Shown here: one piece after another, positions 671 to 14,789 of the stretch
Layout of the letters: the number at the start of each line of letters is the position of its first letter
Numbering within the stretch: the stretch's first letter is position 1
Assembly (NCBI GenBank): GCA_964565065.1
Contig: CAZMDD010000069.1
Span: 1-17,528, forward strand
DNA length: 17,528 nucleotides
Direction: 5' to 3'
Origin: an uncultured Caldilineales bacterium
Lineage (GTDB): Bacteria; Chloroflexota; Anaerolineae; J102
Made by a program: the position numbers and the translations under genes
Notes under the pieces: generated by a model
Seen by the model: the letters and a program-made list of their open reading frames with translations, nothing else
The model's database searches: none
What the model was told of the DNA's origin: nothing

Positions 671-2425
671 TTAGATTTCGGGGGTTATCCAGGGGCGATA
701 ATCTTCGAGGATGGAGCCGCCCAAAAATTCACGCAGGATGGAATCGGAGGGAACGTGATCGGGGCTGGCAGGACGGAACCAGCGCAGTAGCGAAAGCAAA
801 CGCTTCGCTTCGATCCATTCTCGGGTTTCAGGGTCGATTTGGCGCAACAGGGGGAGCACCAGGGGTTGCAGCATGGCCAGTTCGTAGGGCAACGCCGAGT
901 TGAACATGATGTCGGCATTGTTCTGATAGGGGAAAATCCATTTACGTTCGCCTCGGCGCACACTTTCCCAGCGGGCAATGGTATCGGAGGCTGAATAGCC
1001 GCGGCTGCGGGCATCTCGCACAATGCGACGGATGAGGCGTACATCGGTGGTAGAGATACGGTTGTAGCGATCCAGGTTGAGCTGTGCCAAATCGCTGATG
1101 TAGATGCGGAAGCAGACATTGGCATCGACTTGGGGCAGCAAGTCGGGGTTCAGGGCATGAATGCCTTCGATGAGCAGCACATGCTTGGGGGTGATGCGAA
1201 TTTTGGACCCGGCGCCACGTTCGCCCGTGGTGAAATCGAATTTCGGTTGGATGATTTCTTGACCGGCAATCAGTGCGTTGATTTGCTTGTTGAGATAAGC
1301 AACATCGACCGCATGCAGCGATTCAAAATCATAGTCGCCATTTTCATCGCGTGGTGTGTGCGCCCGGTCGACAAAGTAGTTATCCACACTGATGGGCATG
1401 GGGCGCAATCCTACGGCCAGCAGGCGCACAGCCAGACGCCGGGCAAAGGTCGTTTTGCCCGAAGAGGAGGGCCCGGCAATCAAAATGACGCGCACCCGTT
1501 CTTTTTGTCGGGCAATGTCATCGGCAATTTCGCTGATGTGCTGTTCGTGCAGCGATTCAGAGACCAGGATAGCTTCGGTGAGCTGGCCCGACTCGATAAC
1601 TTCGTTCAGGCCCGCCACATTGCGGATGCCCAGCCGCCGCAGCCAGCGACTGTATTGGTTGAATATCTGAAAAAGTGGCGTTGGCGCGGTGTAGGGTTGG
1701 ATGGTGGTGGGGGTGTCTTGATGTGGAAAGCGCAGTAAAAAACCACCATCGGCAGGTTCGATGGCGAAATGGCGCAAATACCTGGTGTTGGGGGCCATGT
1801 AGCCATGAAAGTAATCTTTGGTCTCTAACAATTCGTAGACAATGAGATCTGGCTTGCGCCGTTGTTTGAGTAGCGCCAGTTTTTCTTCATCTCCGGCATC
1901 GGCAAAGATTTGGATGGCTTTTTCGATGGAAACCCGGCTGCGGCGGATGGGAAGTTGTGCGTCGACAACTTCTTGCATCTTTTGCTCAAGTTGAGCCAGC
2001 TCATCGGTGGTGAAGGGCTCGCGGCCAGCGATGCGGCAATAGTAGCCACCATTGACCACAGAATGCTCGACATAAACCCGGGCCTCGGGAAAAATTCGGT
2101 TGGCCACAGCAATCATCATAAAGGTGAGCGAGCGTCGATAGATACGGGCCCCATCGGCAGTGTTCAGTCGGATGCGGCGCACAGAAGCGTCATGTGTCAT
2201 GCGCCGCGAGAGTTCCGAGAGCTTGTTGCCGACAATGGCGGCAATGGCCTGCGGGCGTGGGTCATTTTGCGAGGCCGCCTGCACAAAGGCCTCTAGCGGT
2301 GTACCAACGGGCCCGGCCAATACCTGGCCCGATTCAAAGGTGAGTCGCACATCGTTGCGCGGTTCCGAAACATGAATGCTCATAGTTAGCTTCCGGGAAT
2401 TAGAGAGATTTGGACATGCAATCAT
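671..2425 (-). CDS. Fusion protein. The N-terminal half is ThrRS N-terminal-like: a TGS domain plus an N2 'editing-like' domain whose Zn-binding His/Cys positions are substituted. The C-terminal half is a uridine kinase / phosphoribulokinase-family P-loop kinase. An alternative start is at 2383 (MSIHV...).
   Basis: 584-aa ORF. Walker A 'GPSSSGKTT' matches the Udk/PRK type. The N-terminus reads 'VRLTFESGQVLAGPVGTPLEAF' (TGS-like). 'GGYYCRIA...FTTDELAQLEQKMQEVVDAQLPIRRSRVSIEKAIQIF' aligns to my recollection of E. coli ThrRS N2 (GFYYDVDL...LTQEDVEALEKRMHELAEK...). The positions that correspond to the ThrRS HxxxH and CxxxH zinc ligands are not conserved. Confidence 0.8.
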   Translation of the reverse strand: MIACPNLSNSRKLTMSIHVSEPRNDVRLTFESGQVLAGPVGTPLEAFVQAASQNDPRPQAIAAIVGNKLSELSRRMTHDASVRRIRLNTADGARIYRRSLTFMMIAVANRIFPEARVYVEHSVVNGGYYCRIAGREPFTTDELAQLEQKMQEVVDAQLPIRRSRVSIEKAIQIFADAGDEEKLALLKQRRKPDLIVYELLETKDYFHGYMAPNTRYLRHFAIEPADGGFLLRFPHQDTPTTIQPYTAPTPLFQIFNQYSRWLRRLGIRNVAGLNEVIESGQLTEAILVSESLHEQHISEIADDIARQKERVRVILIAGPSSSGKTTFARRLAVRLLAVGLRPMPISVDNYFVDRAHTPRDENGDYDFESLHAVDVAYLNKQINALIAGQEIIQPKFDFTTGERGAGSKIRITPKHVLLIEGIHALNPDLLPQVDANVCFRIYISDLAQLNLDRYNRISTTDVRLIRRIVRDARSRGYSASDTIARWESVRRGERKWIFPYQNNADIMFNSALPYELAMLQPLVLPLLRQIDPETREWIEAKRLLSLLRWFRPASPDHVPSDSILREFLGGSILEDYRPWITPEI

Positions 2426-2974: not shown

Positions 2975-3032
2975 TGATTTTTTAAAGCTGTCTTAAAACA
3001 TGATTCGAGCCTGTCAGGCAGGAGGTGTGGTT

Positions 3033-4841
3033 ATGAATGTTGTAACATTAATTGTAGTGGTGGCTGCTGTTGTGGCTGTTTTGCTATTGCTATTTCGAGT
3101 TGGAACCAGGCTCATCGGCCTGGTGATTATCAGCGAAAATGAGGTGGGGGTTGTTATCCGCAAATTTGGCAAACCATTACCTCCGGGCAAATTGCTGGCG
3201 CTGAATAAAGAGGCTGGCTATCAGGCTGATACGCTGGCTCCGGGATGGCATTTTGGTTATTGGCTACCGCAGTTTAATGTAATAAAAGTACCTGTCACGG
3301 TGGTTCCACCCGGAGAGATTGCGCTGGTGGTGGCAGCGGATGGCGCATCGATTCCTGCTGAGCGCATTTTGGGCAAGGTGGTGGATTGCGATAATTTTCA
3401 GGATGCCCGCAAGTTTTTGACCAATGGCGGCGAAAAGGGACGCCAGTTGGGTATTCTCACCTCAGGAACGTATCGCATCAATACGGCACTGTTCAAAATC
3501 ATTTTGCGCCAAAATGCGGGCAGTATCGGCATGGACTCCGCTGAATTGCTGGTTTACACTGTTCATCCCGATAAAGTTGGCATTGTGACCACGCTGGACG
3601 GCAAGCCCATCGAAGAGGGTGAGATTGCCGGGCCTCCCATTTCGGGTCACGATAATTTTCAGAACGCGCAGGCTTTTTTGGAAAATGGCGGTCGCCGCGG
3701 TTTGCAGGAGCAAGTGTTGCTTTCTGGGTCGTGGAATCTGAACCCCTGGTTCGTCCAGGTCGAGCAATTACCCATGACCGAGATTCCCATTGGCTATGTG
3801 GGGATTGTCATCTCTTATGTTGGTAAGCCTATGGAGGATGTTAGTGGCGCGTCGTTCAAGCATGGCAATCTGGTCGAGCCGGGCCATAAGGGCGTTTGGG
3901 TTGTGCCCCTGAATCCTGGCAAACACCCCATCAATAGCCGTGTGATGAAGATTGAGCTGGTTCCCACAACCAACATCGTGCTCAATTGGGCTGTGCGTAA
4001 CGAAGCACATCGCTACGATGCCAATCTGTCTCCCATTACGGTGCGCTCGGGCGATGGCTTTGCTTTTAATATGGATGTTGCCCAAATTATCCACATCGGC
4101 TCACAAGAGGCTTCTAAAGTTATTTCCCGGGTGGGGTCTGTGCAAAATTTGGTGGATCATGTTTTGCAGCCCATTGTGGGCAATTACTTCCGCAATGCTG
4201 CCCAGCAATACACAGCTTTGGACTTTTTGGGAAGACGGGGCGAGCGGCAGAAAGAGGCGGCCAGTTATGTCCGCAAGGCTTTGCATACGTATGATGTGGA
4301 AGCGATCGATACGCTTATTGGCGACATTGCGCTGCCGGCGCAGTTGCTGGAGACGCAGACGAATAGGAAAATTGCCGAAGAGGAGCGCAAAACTTATGAA
4401 ATGCAGAAGATGGCGCAAGAGCAGCGGCAACTTTTGGTACGCGAAACATCTCTGGCCGATATTCAACGGGAAATGGTAAAGGCTGAGCGGGGTGTGCAAA
4501 TTGCCAAACTACAGGCCGATGCGACCATCGAGCAGGCTAAGGGTGATGCCGAAGCCACCCGTTTGCAGGCCGAAGGTGAAGCAGCCGCAATTTTGGCCAC
4601 AGGCAAGGCTAAGGCTACTGCGTATCGGGTAGGGGCTGAGGCTTTGGGCGAGCAACATTATGTGGCTTTGCAATTGATGCAGGTGGTCGGTAAAAGTGGC
4701 GTTCGCATTGTGCCCGATGTGTCGGTGAGTGGTGCGAATCATGGTGGCCTGGTGGACAGTTTGCTGGGCGTGATGCTGCATAATCAGATAAAGGAGGGAG
4801 GGTTGCTGCCAGAAGAAGCTGAAAGAACGCTTGCCGAGTAG
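3033..4841 (+). CDS. Flotillin-family (SPFH/band 7, YqiK-like) membrane protein. It has an N-terminal TM anchor, an internally duplicated 'DNFQ..FL.NGG' segment and a C-terminal Glu/Ala-rich coiled coil.
   Basis: The ORF track gives 3000-4841. I prefer the ATG at 3033 (MNVVTLIVVV...) because GGAGG sits at 3021-3025, 7 nt upstream of it. The C-terminal 'ERKTYEMQKMAQEQRQLLV...AKLQADATIEQAKGDAEATRLQAEGEAAAILATGKAKA' is typical of flotillins. Confidence 0.85.
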   Translation: MNVVTLIVVVAAVVAVLLLLFRVGTRLIGLVIISENEVGVVIRKFGKPLPPGKLLALNKEAGYQADTLAPGWHFGYWLPQFNVIKVPVTVVPPGEIALVVAADGASIPAERILGKVVDCDNFQDARKFLTNGGEKGRQLGILTSGTYRINTALFKIILRQNAGSIGMDSAELLVYTVHPDKVGIVTTLDGKPIEEGEIAGPPISGHDNFQNAQAFLENGGRRGLQEQVLLSGSWNLNPWFVQVEQLPMTEIPIGYVGIVISYVGKPMEDVSGASFKHGNLVEPGHKGVWVVPLNPGKHPINSRVMKIELVPTTNIVLNWAVRNEAHRYDANLSPITVRSGDGFAFNMDVAQIIHIGSQEASKVISRVGSVQNLVDHVLQPIVGNYFRNAAQQYTALDFLGRRGERQKEAASYVRKALHTYDVEAIDTLIGDIALPAQLLETQTNRKIAEEERKTYEMQKMAQEQRQLLVRETSLADIQREMVKAERGVQIAKLQADATIEQAKGDAEATRLQAEGEAAAILATGKAKATAYRVGAEALGEQHYVALQLMQVVGKSGVRIVPDVSVSGANHGGLVDSLLGVMLHNQIKEGGLLPEEAERTLAE

Positions 4842-9843: not shown

Positions 9844-10782
9844 ATGAGACGCATCCACCTTATTATCATCCTCTTGCTATTGGTCACGCTGGCACTAACA
9901 GCTTGCAGCGGGTCAGCTCCGACGCCTATGGTGGTCGAAAAATCTGTTGGACAGGCTGTTTCTGCCGATAATGACATGCTCGCCCCCCGTGAAGCGCCCG
10001 CCGCCCCTATGGCATCATCAGCCCTTGCGCCTGCCAGTCAGCAGATGCAAAGCACCCGCAAAATCATCTACAACGCAGATATTGCGCTCATCGTGCAGGA
10101 TACCGAGCAAACAACGCAAGCCATTGCCGAGATGGCCGCCAGCATGGGGGGCTACGTGGCCAGCATGAATGGCTATCATCAGGGCGAGCAGATGATTTAC
10201 GACATCACCATCCGCATCCCCTCCGATAAATTCGAGGCCGGGCGCAGCTCATTGCGGCAAATGGCGGTGCGGGTCGAGCATGAAAATGTTAGCACCAACG
10301 ATGTCACCGATCAGTACTTTGACATCGACGCCCGCCTGCGCACCCTGACCGCTACTGAAGAAGAACTCACCGAGTTGCTCAAAGAAACCCGCAAAAATGG
10401 CGGCAAGGTCGAGGATGTGATGAAAGTTTATGACCGCCTGATTCAAATCCGTAGCGACATTGAATCCTTGCAGGGGCAATTGAATCGTTTGGATAAACTG
10501 GTAGGCTTCTCTACGCTGAACATTCATCTGCAACCGCACATCCTGTCCACCGCCATCGAAAATGATGATTGGCATCCGGCAGAGATTGTTCACGCCAGCA
10601 TCAACACCTTGGTCAATGCCCTCACCGGTCTGGCCACACTGCTCATCCGCCTGGTCATCGTGGTCTTGCCCATTGCCCTGATTTTAATTCTACCGCTGGT
10701 ACTGCTGGTGTGGCTGGTGAGCAAATGGCGCCAACGGGCCCGAACTGTCAAAAACGACGAAACCTCCCAGGATGACTCATAG
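9844..10782 (+). CDS. Lipoprotein, DUF4349-like. It has a lipoprotein signal peptide ending in Cys, a central coiled-coil region and a C-terminal hydrophobic anchor.
   Basis: The N-terminus reads 'MRRIHLIIILLLLVTLALTAC|SG' (lipobox). The C-terminus reads 'LLIRLVIVVLPIALILILPLVLLVWLV' (TM). AGGAG sits 8 nt upstream of the start. The DUF4349 name comes from my memory of that family's architecture and is not verified. Confidence 0.8.
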   Translation: MRRIHLIIILLLLVTLALTACSGSAPTPMVVEKSVGQAVSADNDMLAPREAPAAPMASSALAPASQQMQSTRKIIYNADIALIVQDTEQTTQAIAEMAASMGGYVASMNGYHQGEQMIYDITIRIPSDKFEAGRSSLRQMAVRVEHENVSTNDVTDQYFDIDARLRTLTATEEELTELLKETRKNGGKVEDVMKVYDRLIQIRSDIESLQGQLNRLDKLVGFSTLNIHLQPHILSTAIENDDWHPAEIVHASINTLVNALTGLATLLIRLVIVVLPIALILILPLVLLVWLVSKWRQRARTVKNDETSQDDS

Positions 10783-10851
10783 CCCCCTTTGTTCCTAACG
10801 CACACTGCCCCGATGATAAGCCCTTTTCATTCATCTTTTCGGTCAACCATC

Positions 10852-11259
10852 ATGCGAATCCTCACCTTTTTAGCCAAATCCTTTGCCTGGCAGCCTTTTA
10901 GCCAAACACTGACTCAAGCACCCGCGGCAGAGCCTGGCAGCATGACACAAGTTGTCGTGGCCTTTATTCAAGTCGAGGCCAAAGATGAAGCAGATGAAAA
11001 ACGGGCCTTTCGTCATCTGCTCAAACATCTCAAATGGCTGGCCAACAAAAACGACCTGCGCAACATCGTTTTGCATTCCTTCACCCATTTGGGCGGACAA
11101 AATGCCTCGGCAGATTTTGCCGAATCACTGCTGCAAAACATGGCTCAACGCCTGCGCAACACTGGCTACCAGGTCGAAATCACCCCCTTTGGCTGGTTCT
11201 GTTCCTGGCAAATCGATGTCATGGGCCAAAGTTTGGCCAAGGTGTACAAAGAAATCTGA
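10852..11259 (+). CDS. Small protein resembling the archaeal-type threonyl-tRNA synthetase N-terminal editing domain (tRNA-Thr_ED, DTD-like fold) as a free-standing bacterial protein.
   Basis: Translated from the ATG at 10852, 'MRIL...VVVAFIQVEAKDE...NIVLHSFTHLGG...YQVEITPFGWFCSWQ' aligns to my recollection of Pyrococcus ThrRS residues 1-140 ('MRVL...VLVAFISVEKVDE...NVFVYPFAHLSS...FNVGKAPFGYYKAFK'). The ORF track starts at a TTG (10789). I saw no SD for any candidate start. Confidence 0.55.
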   Translation: MRILTFLAKSFAWQPFSQTLTQAPAAEPGSMTQVVVAFIQVEAKDEADEKRAFRHLLKHLKWLANKNDLRNIVLHSFTHLGGQNASADFAESLLQNMAQRLRNTGYQVEITPFGWFCSWQIDVMGQSLAKVYKEI

Positions 11260-11266
11260 CGCGCAG

Positions 11267-13735
11267 CTACGAAGTTGGGCGCTCCTGTTGCGCCCGTTCA
11301 GCCATCAACTCATGATAGGCCTTCACCCATTTGGCCATCTCTTCATCTCGCCGCTTGCTCTGCTGCATAGCGGCGTTGATTTTTTGCTTTTCGATACGGG
11401 AAAAAATATCGGCGTGAACCGTTTTGGGGTCGGGCACAAAATAAAATTCGATATTGCCTTTGGTGGCGGCAGTCTGAATAGAGACATTGCCGTAATTAAA
11501 AATATAGGCGATAAAATGAGGAATCTGAAATTCCACATTTTCTACACGTTCCAACGATAACTTAATGCGATCTTCCTGCAAGCCCAGCGGCTTCTTGTTC
11601 ACCTGCTCGATGAAGTGATCCGTTACGATGTAGAAATCGTTGCGCCAATCCACCCATTGCCAGACCAGCCACAAAATACCGCCAATCAAAAGGGGAAAGG
11701 CCAGCAGCAGCGCACCATTGCGGATTTGTGTGGCATAAGGTGTATTCCGGGAAATGTCACGAATCACAAAAAATAAAACAATGGCCCCAATAGCCAATCC
11801 CAGAGGCAAGAATGATTTTACCAGAAGTCCAAACCAATGCTTTCGCCAAATAAGTCGCTCACCCAACCGCGGCTTGCTGCTGGAAAAACTTTTAAGGAAT
11901 GCTCGCAACCAACCCAACACTTTATTATAGGTTGGTGCGCTCCCAGCCGTGCGCACCTCAACATCCTCCATCAGCGCCCGCACATCAGTGACCAAATCGG
12001 TCTCCATATCTAGTTCTTTGCGTAAGTAGCGTTTGATGTAATCCTCAGGTTCCTCCATCTGGGCGTGCAGCAGCTTTATCCGTTCGGTGGCGCCAGATAA
12101 AATTTTGATAATTTCATCTGGGTGTGCCAAGTAATCGAACTTTATCTCACCTTCTTCTGCGGCGGTGCTGATGTAAAGCTGTCCGTACCCCAGCATTTTG
12201 GCAAAAAATCCACGCTCCATGTGCGAATTCTGAATTTTGTCGATGGGCGCGGCATTCTGACGTTCACTCATCAGGGGCACAGCTTCTTCGTGCATGATTC
12301 GGGTATGGGTGATGGTGAAATAATCATTCCTATAATCAGCAATCGCCCATCCTCCCATTATTAAAAGCCACAGCAACACCGGCAAAAACTTCAGCCAAAA
12401 CGAGAAATGAATCCCCAGCAACGAAAGAGAAATCAAAATGGCCAGATAAAGTAACGCTACCAGCACCGGAATCAATAAGCGTTTAACCAGAACAATGGGG
12501 TGTCGCCGTTTGCGGAAGAGGGGGCCTTCCTCTGGCTGCAGGGCTGTGCTGGCAACCGCATCTACGCTGGCCAGCATGTGCAGTTTGGCTTCCTTACGTC
12601 GCCATATTTCGGGGTGAGCATTAGAAAATGCCTGAAAATCGAGATAATGGATTTGCAGCCAGCTTACCGGCGTTGTCGCCTCTACCGTGATTTCAGCCAG
12701 TTGATTTTGCTGCATGATGTTTTTCTCGCCCCAGGTAAATCCTGGCATCACCGGTTCCGGCTCTTCGGGCACACCGATGCTGTTGTAGGTATATTTTCGC
12801 GCTTCGCCCCTGGTCAAAATGCGATAGTGAGGATCGGGCTGCTGACTACGGGAGATTTTTGTGCCAGGTCGATGTGCGTAAACCTGCATGACATAGCCTG
12901 CCAGGTACCGAATCTCAGGGCGGGTAAGCATCTTGAAAAATGGCGCCCGACTCAGCATCAGCTCAATGTCGATGGGCTCACGCGTCCACACATTTTGCGG
13001 ATGTCGTTCTGTTAGCGCCACAAAATCAACCTTGGGCACTCGATAACAAGAGACCTTTGTCTCGGCGACAATGCGGCATTTGTAGTAGCCCCCCGTAAAT
13101 ACAACGCGAAGTCCCAGCACGCTATTGCTGCTGCGCCACCACTCCCGCTGAAATAAATTCGATTGCAAGTGTACACGTCCCTGTCGGACAATCATCACAT
13201 CTTTGACTGGGGCGTTCTCCTCAGCCAGCACCCTTCCTCGGGGAATATCCTCGAATTTTACCAAATCGCTCAGCCAGTCGATTTCGGGATTGGTCAAAGG
13301 TGCGAAATAAGGAATCGCCCGCAAACGTCCGGCCACGCGGGCCCGGTCGAATTTGCGGCCCCAGGCAGGATAATGAGATGCCAGTGTTACCAACGACTTG
13401 ACATCGATGCTGATGAGCTCCACCTCGCGGGCAGCCCGGGCGTCGCCCAACTGCGGCGCATGAATATCCAAACGCAGCCGACCCAGCACTTCGCCCTCAT
13501 TCACCACTCGCCACAGCTCCCGCTGCCCCTCATCCCGCCGCAAAAGCGTTACCTGCCCCCGTTTCACCAAAAAGAGACGCCGAATCACCGCGTCCTGCCG
13601 AAACAGCAGCACGCCCGGTTTGATGGGTTGCGATGTTGGCACTGCGCGAATCCGCTTCAGCGCTTCATCAGGAATCCCCTGGAAGAGCTCGAACTCACGC
13701 AAGGCTGCGACAACATCAAAAGTGGAATCAGGCAT
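11267..13735 (-). CDS. Membrane signalling protein of unknown output. It has three N-terminal cNMP-binding-like (CAP effector) domains followed by two TM-anchored bacterial PH (bPH_2, YdbS/YdbT-like) modules.
   Basis: The 822-aa product has cNMP-like cores 'GEVLGRL...DARAAREVELISI', a second weaker one, and 'GFTWGEKNIMQQNQLAEITVEATTPVSWLQI'. Two hydrophobic hairpins are each followed by a roughly 100-aa segment like YdbT ('...YISTAAEEGEIKFDYLAHPDEI...' and '...VSIQTAATKGNIEFYFVPDPKTV...'). Confidence 0.8.
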   Translation of the reverse strand: MPDSTFDVVAALREFELFQGIPDEALKRIRAVPTSQPIKPGVLLFRQDAVIRRLFLVKRGQVTLLRRDEGQRELWRVVNEGEVLGRLRLDIHAPQLGDARAAREVELISIDVKSLVTLASHYPAWGRKFDRARVAGRLRAIPYFAPLTNPEIDWLSDLVKFEDIPRGRVLAEENAPVKDVMIVRQGRVHLQSNLFQREWWRSSNSVLGLRVVFTGGYYKCRIVAETKVSCYRVPKVDFVALTERHPQNVWTREPIDIELMLSRAPFFKMLTRPEIRYLAGYVMQVYAHRPGTKISRSQQPDPHYRILTRGEARKYTYNSIGVPEEPEPVMPGFTWGEKNIMQQNQLAEITVEATTPVSWLQIHYLDFQAFSNAHPEIWRRKEAKLHMLASVDAVASTALQPEEGPLFRKRRHPIVLVKRLLIPVLVALLYLAILISLSLLGIHFSFWLKFLPVLLWLLIMGGWAIADYRNDYFTITHTRIMHEEAVPLMSERQNAAPIDKIQNSHMERGFFAKMLGYGQLYISTAAEEGEIKFDYLAHPDEIIKILSGATERIKLLHAQMEEPEDYIKRYLRKELDMETDLVTDVRALMEDVEVRTAGSAPTYNKVLGWLRAFLKSFSSSKPRLGERLIWRKHWFGLLVKSFLPLGLAIGAIVLFFVIRDISRNTPYATQIRNGALLLAFPLLIGGILWLVWQWVDWRNDFYIVTDHFIEQVNKKPLGLQEDRIKLSLERVENVEFQIPHFIAYIFNYGNVSIQTAATKGNIEFYFVPDPKTVHADIFSRIEKQKINAAMQQSKRRDEEMAKWVKAYHELMAERAQQERPTS

Positions 13736-14132
13736 AATTTCGGGAAACCAGCAATAAACAACGGCTCAATACAATCATCATACCTATTTTAACACGTTAT
13801 GGCAACCTTGCCCCCCTGGCGGACACATCAACTTGAGAGGATTGCCAGTCTCGCCAAGCCGAAAATGGCTTGCGCCATAGGGTTGCGGAGGACAAGAAGA
13901 TATTTTGCGGGAATGCCGCGGGGAAGTTGGTGATTCTCTCTGGATAGTGATGAACTGTTGCATTTCAAATTCTGACGGGGGCCCGCTGCTTCCGATTTTA
14001 CAAATCTCGAGTTTAGAATAAAACTTTGATAACACTTTAATGAGATGATAAAGGGGAGGCCGCTATGGCCTTCATTGGAATCACGCTGTGGTTGATTCTG
14101 TCACAACACTCCCAGTAGTTACGAGGTGAACT

Positions 14133-14789
14133 ATGAAGAAGCGAACCAAACTTGTTACCGGTGCGGTGCTTGCACTGCTGGCTCTGGTCATTGTGCCCAT
14201 GGCTGTTTTTGCGCAACAGGGCCCGAAACCGCGACCGAACCATGAACATGCCCTGATGCGCGCCCTGACTGAAACCGCGGCCCAAACCCTGGGCATGACC
14301 CCGCAGGAATTTGTACAGGCCATGCGTCAGGGTAAGACCCCGGCACAACTGGCCGAAGAAGCGCAAGTAAACCCCGATGATCTGGCCGCAGCCATGCAAA
14401 ACACCTGGAATACCCAGGGCGAGCAGCTCATTGCCACATTTATCGAGCAGGGTGCGCCAGCCAAGGTCGGGCAACGCGAGGCTGAGCGTCGGCAGCGGGC
14501 GCTGCGACGTTGGACCAGGCTGGCAGCAGAGACATTAGACATGTCACCGCGAGTCTTTGTTCAGGAGCTACGTTCGGGCCAAAGTGCCGCCCAAATTGCT
14601 GAAGCACACGGTAGCTCGGGCCAGGCTTTGGTCGATGCCGTGGTAGCAGCGGAACAAGCGCATCTTGATCAGGCTGTGGCCGATGGCAAGATGACCCAGG
14701 AGGAAGCGGATAACCTTTTGCCCAAAATCATCGAGCAAGCCAACAAATGGGTGGTGCGAGTGCCGCCCACCAATCCGCCTGGAAACTGA
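14133..14789 (+). CDS. Secreted protein with a signal peptide and two tandem copies of a roughly 45-70 aa alpha-helical repeat.
   Basis: The N-terminus reads 'MKKRTKLVTGAVLALLALVIVPMAVFA'. The repeat 'LTETAAQTLGMTPQEFVQAMRQGKTPAQLAEEAQ' corresponds to 'LAAETLDMSPRVFVQELRSGQSAAQIAEAHG'. GAGGTG sits 5 nt upstream of the ATG. Confidence 0.75.
   Translation: MKKRTKLVTGAVLALLALVIVPMAVFAQQGPKPRPNHEHALMRALTETAAQTLGMTPQEFVQAMRQGKTPAQLAEEAQVNPDDLAAAMQNTWNTQGEQLIATFIEQGAPAKVGQREAERRQRALRRWTRLAAETLDMSPRVFVQELRSGQSAAQIAEAHGSSGQALVDAVVAAEQAHLDQAVADGKMTQEEADNLLPKIIEQANKWVVRVPPTNPPGN

Follow-up and report, generated by a model that had tools for sequence, protein, structure and literature searches.

The window analysed here, 17,528 nucleotides of an uncultured Caldilineales bacterium (contig CAZMDD010000069.1), contains a minus-strand gene at 11267..13735 for a membrane protein in which three domains of the cyclic-nucleotide-binding (CNB) fold precede two modules, each joining a transmembrane (TM) hairpin to a bacterial pleckstrin homology (bPH) domain. 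The gene is a typical representative of a family, common and uncharacterised in Chloroflexota, that combines a constant core with a variable N-terminus of one to four CNB domains. It is conserved and chromosomally inherited, and its product is an inner-membrane protein. The arginine that grips the phosphate of cyclic nucleotides is lost from all three CNB domains, and canonical binding of 3',5'-cyclic adenosine or guanosine monophosphate (cAMP or cGMP) by this protein is unlikely. Membrane proteins with bPH_2 domains of the YdbS/YdbT type are widespread and genetically tied to antimicrobial-peptide export and tolerance. In profile, topology and fold the protein agrees with the bPH_2/YdbT kind, from which it departs in having two modules instead of three, in the missing YdbS partner and in its CNB array; with CNB domains it agrees in fold but not in the binding cassette. 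The CNB-bPH family of Chloroflexota is common and computationally visible.

A Pfam scan of the whole protein matches cNMP_binding (PF00027) over three stretches (E=4.3e-23, 81.5 bits against a cut-off of 27.5) and bPH_2 (PF03703/COG3428) over two (E=1.8e-11, 44.5 bits against a cut-off of 22). The scan returns no family besides these two and no ion-channel or transporter match, and the protein has no enzymatic, channel or DNA-binding domain. A sequence-only reading of the window had described exactly this composition, three CNB-like domains and two membrane-anchored bPH modules with no enzymatic output; Pfam, hydropathy, structure prediction and Foldseek bear out the modules, and the restriction to two Pfam families bears out the missing enzyme. 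When the domains are scanned alone, CNB1 (aa 38-120, 40.6 bits) and CNB2 (aa ~164-245, 34.5 bits) exceed the Pfam cut-off of 27.5, and CNB3 (aa ~289-372, 17.8 bits) falls under it. Likewise, bPH module 1 (aa 468-543) scores 31.9 bits, above the cut-off of 22, and module 2 (aa ~700-775) scores 18.5 bits, under it; BLASTP nevertheless identifies the two modules as homologues (27% identity across 104 aa, E=5e-12). Matches to NCBIfam models are partial, arise through the CNB fold and do not amount to membership in any of them. The rejected candidates are the family 2B encapsulin shell (49.7 bits against a cut-off of 400), the bacteriocin-transport-associated CNB protein TIGR03896 (19.6 bits against 161) and FtrB, Pat and CRP, each matched in part only.

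The AlphaFold2 (AF2) model of the full-length protein, built from 150 aligned sequences, has a mean predicted local distance difference test score (pLDDT) of 91.1 and a predicted template modelling score (pTM) of 0.85. Its N-terminal part consists of three strand-rich units with helices after each, the arrangement of a CNB-type β-barrel and its helices. The first domain (aa 7-125; 13361..13717, minus strand, as are all features of the protein below) is placed by Pfam, by alignment with the CNB domain of SthK, by a CRP-anchored hmmalign alignment and by the model. The second (aa 135-247; 12995..13333) is placed by Pfam, the CRP-anchored alignment and the model, and the third, membrane-proximal domain (aa 260-380; 12596..12958) by alignment with the CNB domain of MloK1 and by Pfam, at a score that is sub-threshold when the domain is scanned alone. 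A Foldseek search of the model against the PDB returns multi-CNB regulators as its top matches, with Plasmodium PKG at E=5e-19 and PKA regulatory (R) subunits at about 1e-14; the PKG and PKA R matches span 5e-19 to 1e-12 at a sequence identity of only 13-17%. Structures of cAMP-independent trypanosomatid PKA R subunits are among the matches.

The C-terminal half is membrane-bound. Hydropathy marks two extended hydrophobic segments (aa 411-468 and 634-695), and AF2 predicts helical hairpins there (413-439/446-469 and 634-662/668-699) whose connecting loops measure only ~5-6 residues. Short strands (405-411 and 627-631) directly precede each hairpin in the model, which suggests that in either module the TM hairpin interrupts a PH domain after its first strand and before its second, and the soluble bPH modules have a PH-like fold. 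The C-terminal helices of CNB3 (364-389) lead through a flexible linker (pLDDT 59-66) to the first of these strands, which carries the conserved E403 and RRH412. This juxtamembrane strand (E403, R410-R411-H412) and TM hairpin 1 occupy aa 403-469 (12329..12529; hydropathy and AF2) and are followed by bPH_2 domain 1 (aa 470-545; 12101..12328), in which D471 is invariant and N470, T476 and R479 are nearly so. The inter-module linker (aa 546-626; 11858..12100) is part helical and part low-confidence in the model, with a pLDDT of 53-92 per 10-residue block and a minimum near aa 591-620. A second juxtamembrane strand (W630-R631-K632-H633-W634) and TM hairpin 2 follow at aa 627-699 (11639..11857), as placed by hydropathy, AF2 and conservation, and lead into bPH_2 domain 2 (aa 700-780; 11396..11638), where conservation is highest. 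Finally, a long C-terminal helix (aa 781-822; 11270..11395) extends the C-terminal helix of the PH domain, the two forming AF2 helix 770-818.

The canonical CNB cassette grips the cyclic phosphate through a Gly-Glu pair and an Arg-Ser/Thr pair, represented in Escherichia coli CRP by E72, R82 and S83. The equivalent positions in this protein were read from three alignments, CNB1 on SthK and CNB3 on MloK1 by HMMER, and all three domains on CRP by a profile alignment anchored on the E. coli sequence. The CRP-anchored alignment was used because no alignment of CNB2 to PDB sequences spanned the cassette. The best PDB sequence match of CNB1 is the CNB domain of SthK (E=8e-6), with the cassette GE...PRT, and that of CNB3 is the CNB domain of MloK1 (E=2e-3), with the cassette GE...PRS. 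In CNB1 the Glu, Arg and Ser/Thr positions are held by R86, Q95 and L96, and in CNB2 by L209, Y218 and K219. CNB3 keeps G336-E337 at the Glu position, has A347 at the Arg position and carries the acidic E348 at the Ser/Thr position, beside the expected phosphate site. The phosphate-binding arginine is thus lost in three of three domains and the glutamate is kept in CNB3 only, so that none of the three has the cassette that defines a canonical binder. The sequence-only reading had singled out the middle CNB domain as degenerate; its cassette is indeed degenerate, but so are those of the other two, and the weakest Pfam score belongs to the third.

This loss is widespread in the three-CNB family. 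Among its 51 aligned members, all of which match both Pfam families, the arginine is present in CNB1 of 2, CNB2 of 7 and CNB3 of 8, and the glutamate in CNB1 of none, CNB2 of 3 and CNB3 of 40. The closest relative, P0004, aligns end to end over 820 aa at 45% identity and reads FGR in CNB3, having lost the glutamate there too. Relatives with a single CNB domain keep the arginine in 37/72 cases and the glutamate in 32/72; their typical motif is FGE..SLL.GEPRDATV, and P0123 is fully canonical with FGE..PRAATV. With the arginine absent from all three pockets and the glutamate from two, the coupling to cAMP or cGMP proposed in the sequence-only reading is not supported. About half of the single-CNB relatives have a near-canonical cassette, which makes control by a cyclic nucleoside monophosphate (cNMP) plausible for the ancestral single-CNB form, and we read the three-CNB clade, this gene included, as having probably departed from canonical cAMP/cGMP binding. 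CNB domains have changed ligand elsewhere: trypanosomatid PKA R subunits have an altered cassette and bind purine nucleosides instead of cAMP (PMC10959531), which provides a precedent. The family would add a bacterial case to the few CNB domains that have probably left cyclic-nucleotide signalling, and its intact-cassette single-CNB relatives and degenerate three-CNB proteins offer a natural comparison with experimental handles. Its members are named "cyclic nucleotide-binding domain-containing protein" at NCBI, and the generic database name of this gene is likely misleading on ligand.

The architecture had been called unusual, a description that the size of the family overturns. A word-indexed homologue search returned the protein itself and nothing else. 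In an exhaustive HMMER search, 447 of 1.84 billion cluster representatives matched at E<=1e-30, and 2769 did so at the looser limit of E<=1e-3. Domains were counted in the best 152 proteins with local hidden Markov models (HMMs) built for each domain, and the family layout is [CNB]n-[TM2-bPH]x2. Two bPH modules are present in 147 of these 152; among proteins with both modules, 71 have one CNB domain, 58 have three, seven have two and three have four, and eight have none, several of the last being fragments. The alignment of single-CNB relatives begins at query residue ~256-265, so CNB3 is common to both forms and, as far as these alignments indicate, presumably ancestral, with CNB1 and CNB2 as N-terminal additions. 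A search of GTDB species-representative genomes with a profile from a 10-sequence alignment found 512 stretches that encode relatives, of which 80 loci were kept. Near-full-length matches among these all lie in Chloroflexota metagenome-assembled genomes (MAGs; Anaerolineae, Caldilineales/Caldilineaceae and "Chloroflexia"), the best being only 38% identical, and the remaining kept loci, from other phyla, match over single YdbS-like modules only. The identical protein is present on four public contigs (JGI, ENA, NCBI GCA_054029655.1 and Logan) and is labelled 'YdbT with pleckstrin-like domain' at JGI. No relatives were found in the viral contigs searched, and a literature search found no paper on a CNB-bPH fusion. 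In L037 and L042, both long-read MAG contigs, the family gene is broken into two or three consecutive ORFs (open reading frames), which could be a pseudogene or the product of assembly frameshift errors.

Conservation across the three-CNB family, computed by region as mean pairwise identity and mean identity to the query, is highest in the PH domains. bPH-2 reaches 46% pairwise and 42% to the query, and bPH-1 40% and 35%. The CNB domains reach 24-31% and 21-23%, the TM hairpins 20-23% and ~21%, and the inter-module linker 23% and 12%. Invariant and nearly invariant residues concentrate in the PH domains and at the cytoplasmic face of the membrane. In module 1 they are E403, R410-R411-H412, W463, D467, N470, D471, T476, R479 and E484, with E403, H412, W463 and D467 each retained in at least 80% of the 150 sequences; in module 2 they are W630-K632-H633, D696-W697-N699-D700, P716, G749 and T755-A756. 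This distribution over the PH modules and juxtamembrane motifs suggests that the membrane-apposed PH module is presumably the working part. The TM cores are purely hydrophobic, with close to zero polar residues, and in this the hairpins resemble anchors rather than a polar conduit.

A paired signature recurs in each module: an invariant His (H412, H633) immediately precedes the first TM helix, and an invariant Asp (D471, D700) directly follows the second. The four residues lie at the cytoplasmic membrane interface (aa 403-471 and 627-700; window 11639-12529, minus strand). The pairs H412/D471 and H633/D700 could form a head-group, metal or catalytic site instead of being purely structural.

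The gene neighbourhood was compared by crude ORF calls in 37 related loci and the window's contig, with the neighbours clustered. uvrC lies directly upstream on the same strand in 13 of the 37 loci (L017, L020, L022-L025, L029, L031, L034, L035, L037, L038 and L040) and in two further single-CNB members (L088 and L089). These pairs span single- and triple-CNB forms at ~25% identity to the query. About six have a gap of 0-12 bp, a tightness that start-codon choice in the crude calls may overstate, and gaps of this size suggest that uvrC and the family gene are co-transcribed there. To our knowledge, no functional link connects UvrC with any bPH membrane protein. Downstream, a stand-alone gene resembling the editing domain of threonyl-tRNA synthetase (ThrRS) is convergent in 11 loci, which form the closest clade and include the window, and the 3' ends overlap in L011 and L012. 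A convergent DUF4349 gene is found in the window, L016, L017, L019, L035, L085 and L086, often with a metallophosphoesterase gene next to it, and a convergent metallophosphoesterase gene is found in 11 loci plus L085/L086. Every recurrent downstream neighbour is convergent, and none is therefore co-transcribed with the CNB-bPH gene. The same housekeeping block stands beside single- and triple-CNB forms, which places both at the same locus and makes them probably orthologous. The neighbourhood is a slowly decaying housekeeping synteny block, chromosomal and vertically inherited, and a functional partner drawn from it was rejected because the association is housekeeping synteny only. Genes for a cyclase, a YdbS-like partner, an ABC exporter or a bacteriocin are absent from the recurrent neighbours in the 37 loci; the called genes of the surrounding 22-kb contig include no cyclase, and neither the window nor its contig has an adjacent gene for a YdbS-like single-module partner. 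A flotillin gene about 7 kb away had been offered as a possible link to membrane function; a flotillin (Band_7) gene lies within 8 kb in none of the 36 other loci, and flotillin was rejected as a functional partner.

A comparison with known systems shows which features are shared. Like B. subtilis YdbT and the Enterococcus faecalis proteins DdE/DdF, the protein is built from repeats of a TM hairpin and a bacterial PH domain that would face the cytoplasm, and its bPH_2 match is above threshold. It differs from YdbT and DdF, which have three modules with six TM helices and three PH domains (PMC8657885), in having two modules, and from YdbS/YdbT in having no YdbS-like partner gene and no visible bacteriocin or sigma-W type context. 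Furthermore, the YdbT/DdF layouts consist of TM helices and PHb2 domains only (PMC8657885), whereas this protein carries an N-terminal three-CNB array of ~395 aa. Several tandem CNB-fold domains are shared with PKA R subunits and PKG, especially Plasmodium PKG and trypanosomatid PKA R, the latter also being a precedent for degenerate or re-specified pockets (PMC10959531). Unlike in PKA R and PKG, the regulated partner would be a membrane PH module on the same chain and not a kinase, and the arginine is in none of the three pockets. The K+ channels MloK1 and SthK are likewise membrane proteins with cytoplasmic CNB domains; in contrast to them, this protein has no six-TM pore or selectivity filter, its CNB domains are N-terminal and tripled, and cassette Glu and Arg residues are replaced. 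Finally, the CNB-TM and CNB-TIR effectors of Pycsar resemble it in fusing a CNB sensor to TM helices without an enzyme domain, but here bPH domains are present and there is no cyclase partner, defence-island context or significant PADLOC match.

The likeliest reading of these features, with confidence a little short of even, is that YdbT-type PH modules anchored in the membrane form an assembly controlled by a CNB array of non-canonical type. All soluble parts would lie on the cytoplasmic side; both the positive charge of the juxtamembrane segments and the intracellular location predicted for DUF304 proteins (PMC2817789) are in line with this placement. The PH modules would be the working part, held flat on the inner membrane face by the hairpins, and PH-PH contacts would probably assemble them into a membrane-apposed oligomer; C5 and C12 rings are formed by soluble PH domains of bacteria, and such rings were proposed for DUF304 proteins (PMC2817789). 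Such an oligomer would serve membrane-associated peptide or envelope handling, as may be compared with the YdbS/YdbT-like proteins DdE/DdF, which E. faecalis requires for export of enterocin DD14 (PMC8657885), and an envelope-stress or membrane-scaffold role of the YdbT-like part is a reasonable analogy. The CNB-fold array would act as a regulatory appendage, with CNB3, joined directly to the first PH strand, passing a conformational change to the PH modules. That a large family keeps a sensor-type domain permanently attached to the YdbT-type core suggests a regulated effector and not a passive anchor. Control would come not from canonical cAMP or cGMP but from another small ligand, or the array would consist of ligand-free autoinhibitory or assembly domains.

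Several points weigh against this regulated assembly. Oligomerisation and regulation by the CNB array are both inferences, and the soluble PH domains that form rings belong to PF08000, so that their transfer to bPH_2 would be by analogy. The analogy with DdE/DdF and YdbS/YdbT is weakened because the surroundings contain no gene for a bacteriocin, an ABC transporter or a YdbS-like partner. A cNMP might conceivably be bound in a non-canonical manner without the arginine. The cassette region of CNB1 shows clade-specific conservation, with Q-[LM]-G shared by the four closest proteins and P-H-S-T (PH[ST]) by many others, and may therefore hold a real but different ligand site. Finally, a hidden catalytic site, if one were present at H412/D471 and H633/D700, would change the picture.

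Two alternatives are unlikely to about the same degree. In one, the YdbT-type TM-hairpin/PH module would act on the membrane as a signalling output of a kind not recognised before, and the attached sensor would switch its assembly or conformation. In Chloroflexota that sensor would be the CNB-fold array, re-specified in the three-CNB clade from cyclic nucleotides to another ligand such as a nucleoside or other metabolite; under that proposal, the recurrent tight pairing with uvrC would point to a possible link with DNA-damage or stress physiology. In the other, four TM helices per chain, multiplied by an oligomer, would form a conduit gated by the cytoplasmic CNB/PH ring, in the manner of cyclic-nucleotide-gated (CNG), MloK1 and SthK channels or of peptide exporters. 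DUF304 proteins were proposed to be membrane-bound transporters or pores (PMC2817789), bacteriocin export needs DdE/DdF (PMC8657885), and the best alignments of CNB1 and CNB3 are with the CNB domains of SthK and MloK1. A pore is hard to reconcile, however, with uniformly hydrophobic TM cores devoid of conserved polar or charged residues, with periplasmic loops of ~5-6 residues, with the lack of an ion-channel or transporter match in Pfam and with the absence of a cargo gene nearby.

A cAMP- or cGMP-gated membrane effector, in which at least one CNB domain binds a canonical 3',5'-cyclic nucleotide from a cyclase elsewhere and switches the YdbT-like part, is unlikely. The phosphate arginine has become Q95, Y218 and A347, the ribose-binding glutamate has become R86 and L209, the Ser/Thr position of CNB3 is the acidic E348, the nearest relative has lost even the CNB3 glutamate, and no cyclase was found on the 22-kb contig or in the 37 related loci. 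These losses are set against cNMP_binding matches above threshold, a fold that resembles PKG and PKA regulatory domains, and the near-canonical cassettes of about half of the single-CNB relatives, such as P0123.

An abortive-infection effector of the Pycsar/CBASS type, combining a cNMP sensor with membrane-disrupting TM helices, is very unlikely: CNB effectors with TM helices are known in Pycsar (PMC11224242) and the CNB3 region weakly matches TIR-effector and PycTIR models in PADLOC (E=3.9e-5 to 6.3e-3), but these matches span ~50 residues of CNB fold with no stretch significant alone, the binding cassettes are degenerate, relatives are lacking on the viral contigs searched, the housekeeping synteny (uvrC upstream; ThrRS-editing-like, DUF4349 and metallophosphoesterase genes downstream) holds even at 25% identity, and no cyclase was found on the 22-kb contig or among the recurrent neighbours, the sequence-only reading having already taken the lack of an adjacent one as evidence against such an operon.

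The ORF begins with ATG and encodes 822 aa plus a stop codon at 11267-11269, and the gene looks monocistronic within the window. Its 3' end lies 8 bp from the convergent ThrRS-editing-domain gene (10789..11259, plus strand), and 397 bp of intergenic DNA upstream separate it from a divergent orphan ORF of 218 aa (14133..14789, plus strand). A promoter-like site, TTGCCA-17-TATGAT (13777..13805, minus strand), matches the consensus at 10/12 positions ~40 nt upstream of the ATG; it is a consensus match only, and the region contains no more such sites than expected from shuffling. Rfam and tRNA scans of the window gave no match, and no riboswitch was found in the 397-bp upstream intergenic region.

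Other genes of the window have features of their own. The 218-aa orphan ORF has a hydrophobic, signal-like N-terminus and only sub-threshold Pfam matches of helix-turn-helix (HTH) type, and no homologue occurs in the other 37 loci. An ORF of 584 aa (671-2425, minus strand) contains a P-loop domain of the phosphoribulokinase/uridine-kinase kind only at aa 313-510, with the ~300 aa N-terminal to it unassigned, and PADLOC returns weak P-loop matches only. The flotillin-like protein (3000-4841, plus strand) has 613 aa, and its SPFH/Band_7 region is restricted to aa 261-474; no Pfam family matches its N-terminal ~260 aa. A DUF4349 protein is encoded at 9844-10782 (plus strand). Finally, the gene at 10789-11259 (plus strand) encodes a stand-alone, archaeal-type threonyl-tRNA synthetase editing domain in a bacterium (PF08915, E=2.9e-36), with a length of 135 aa according to other gene callers.

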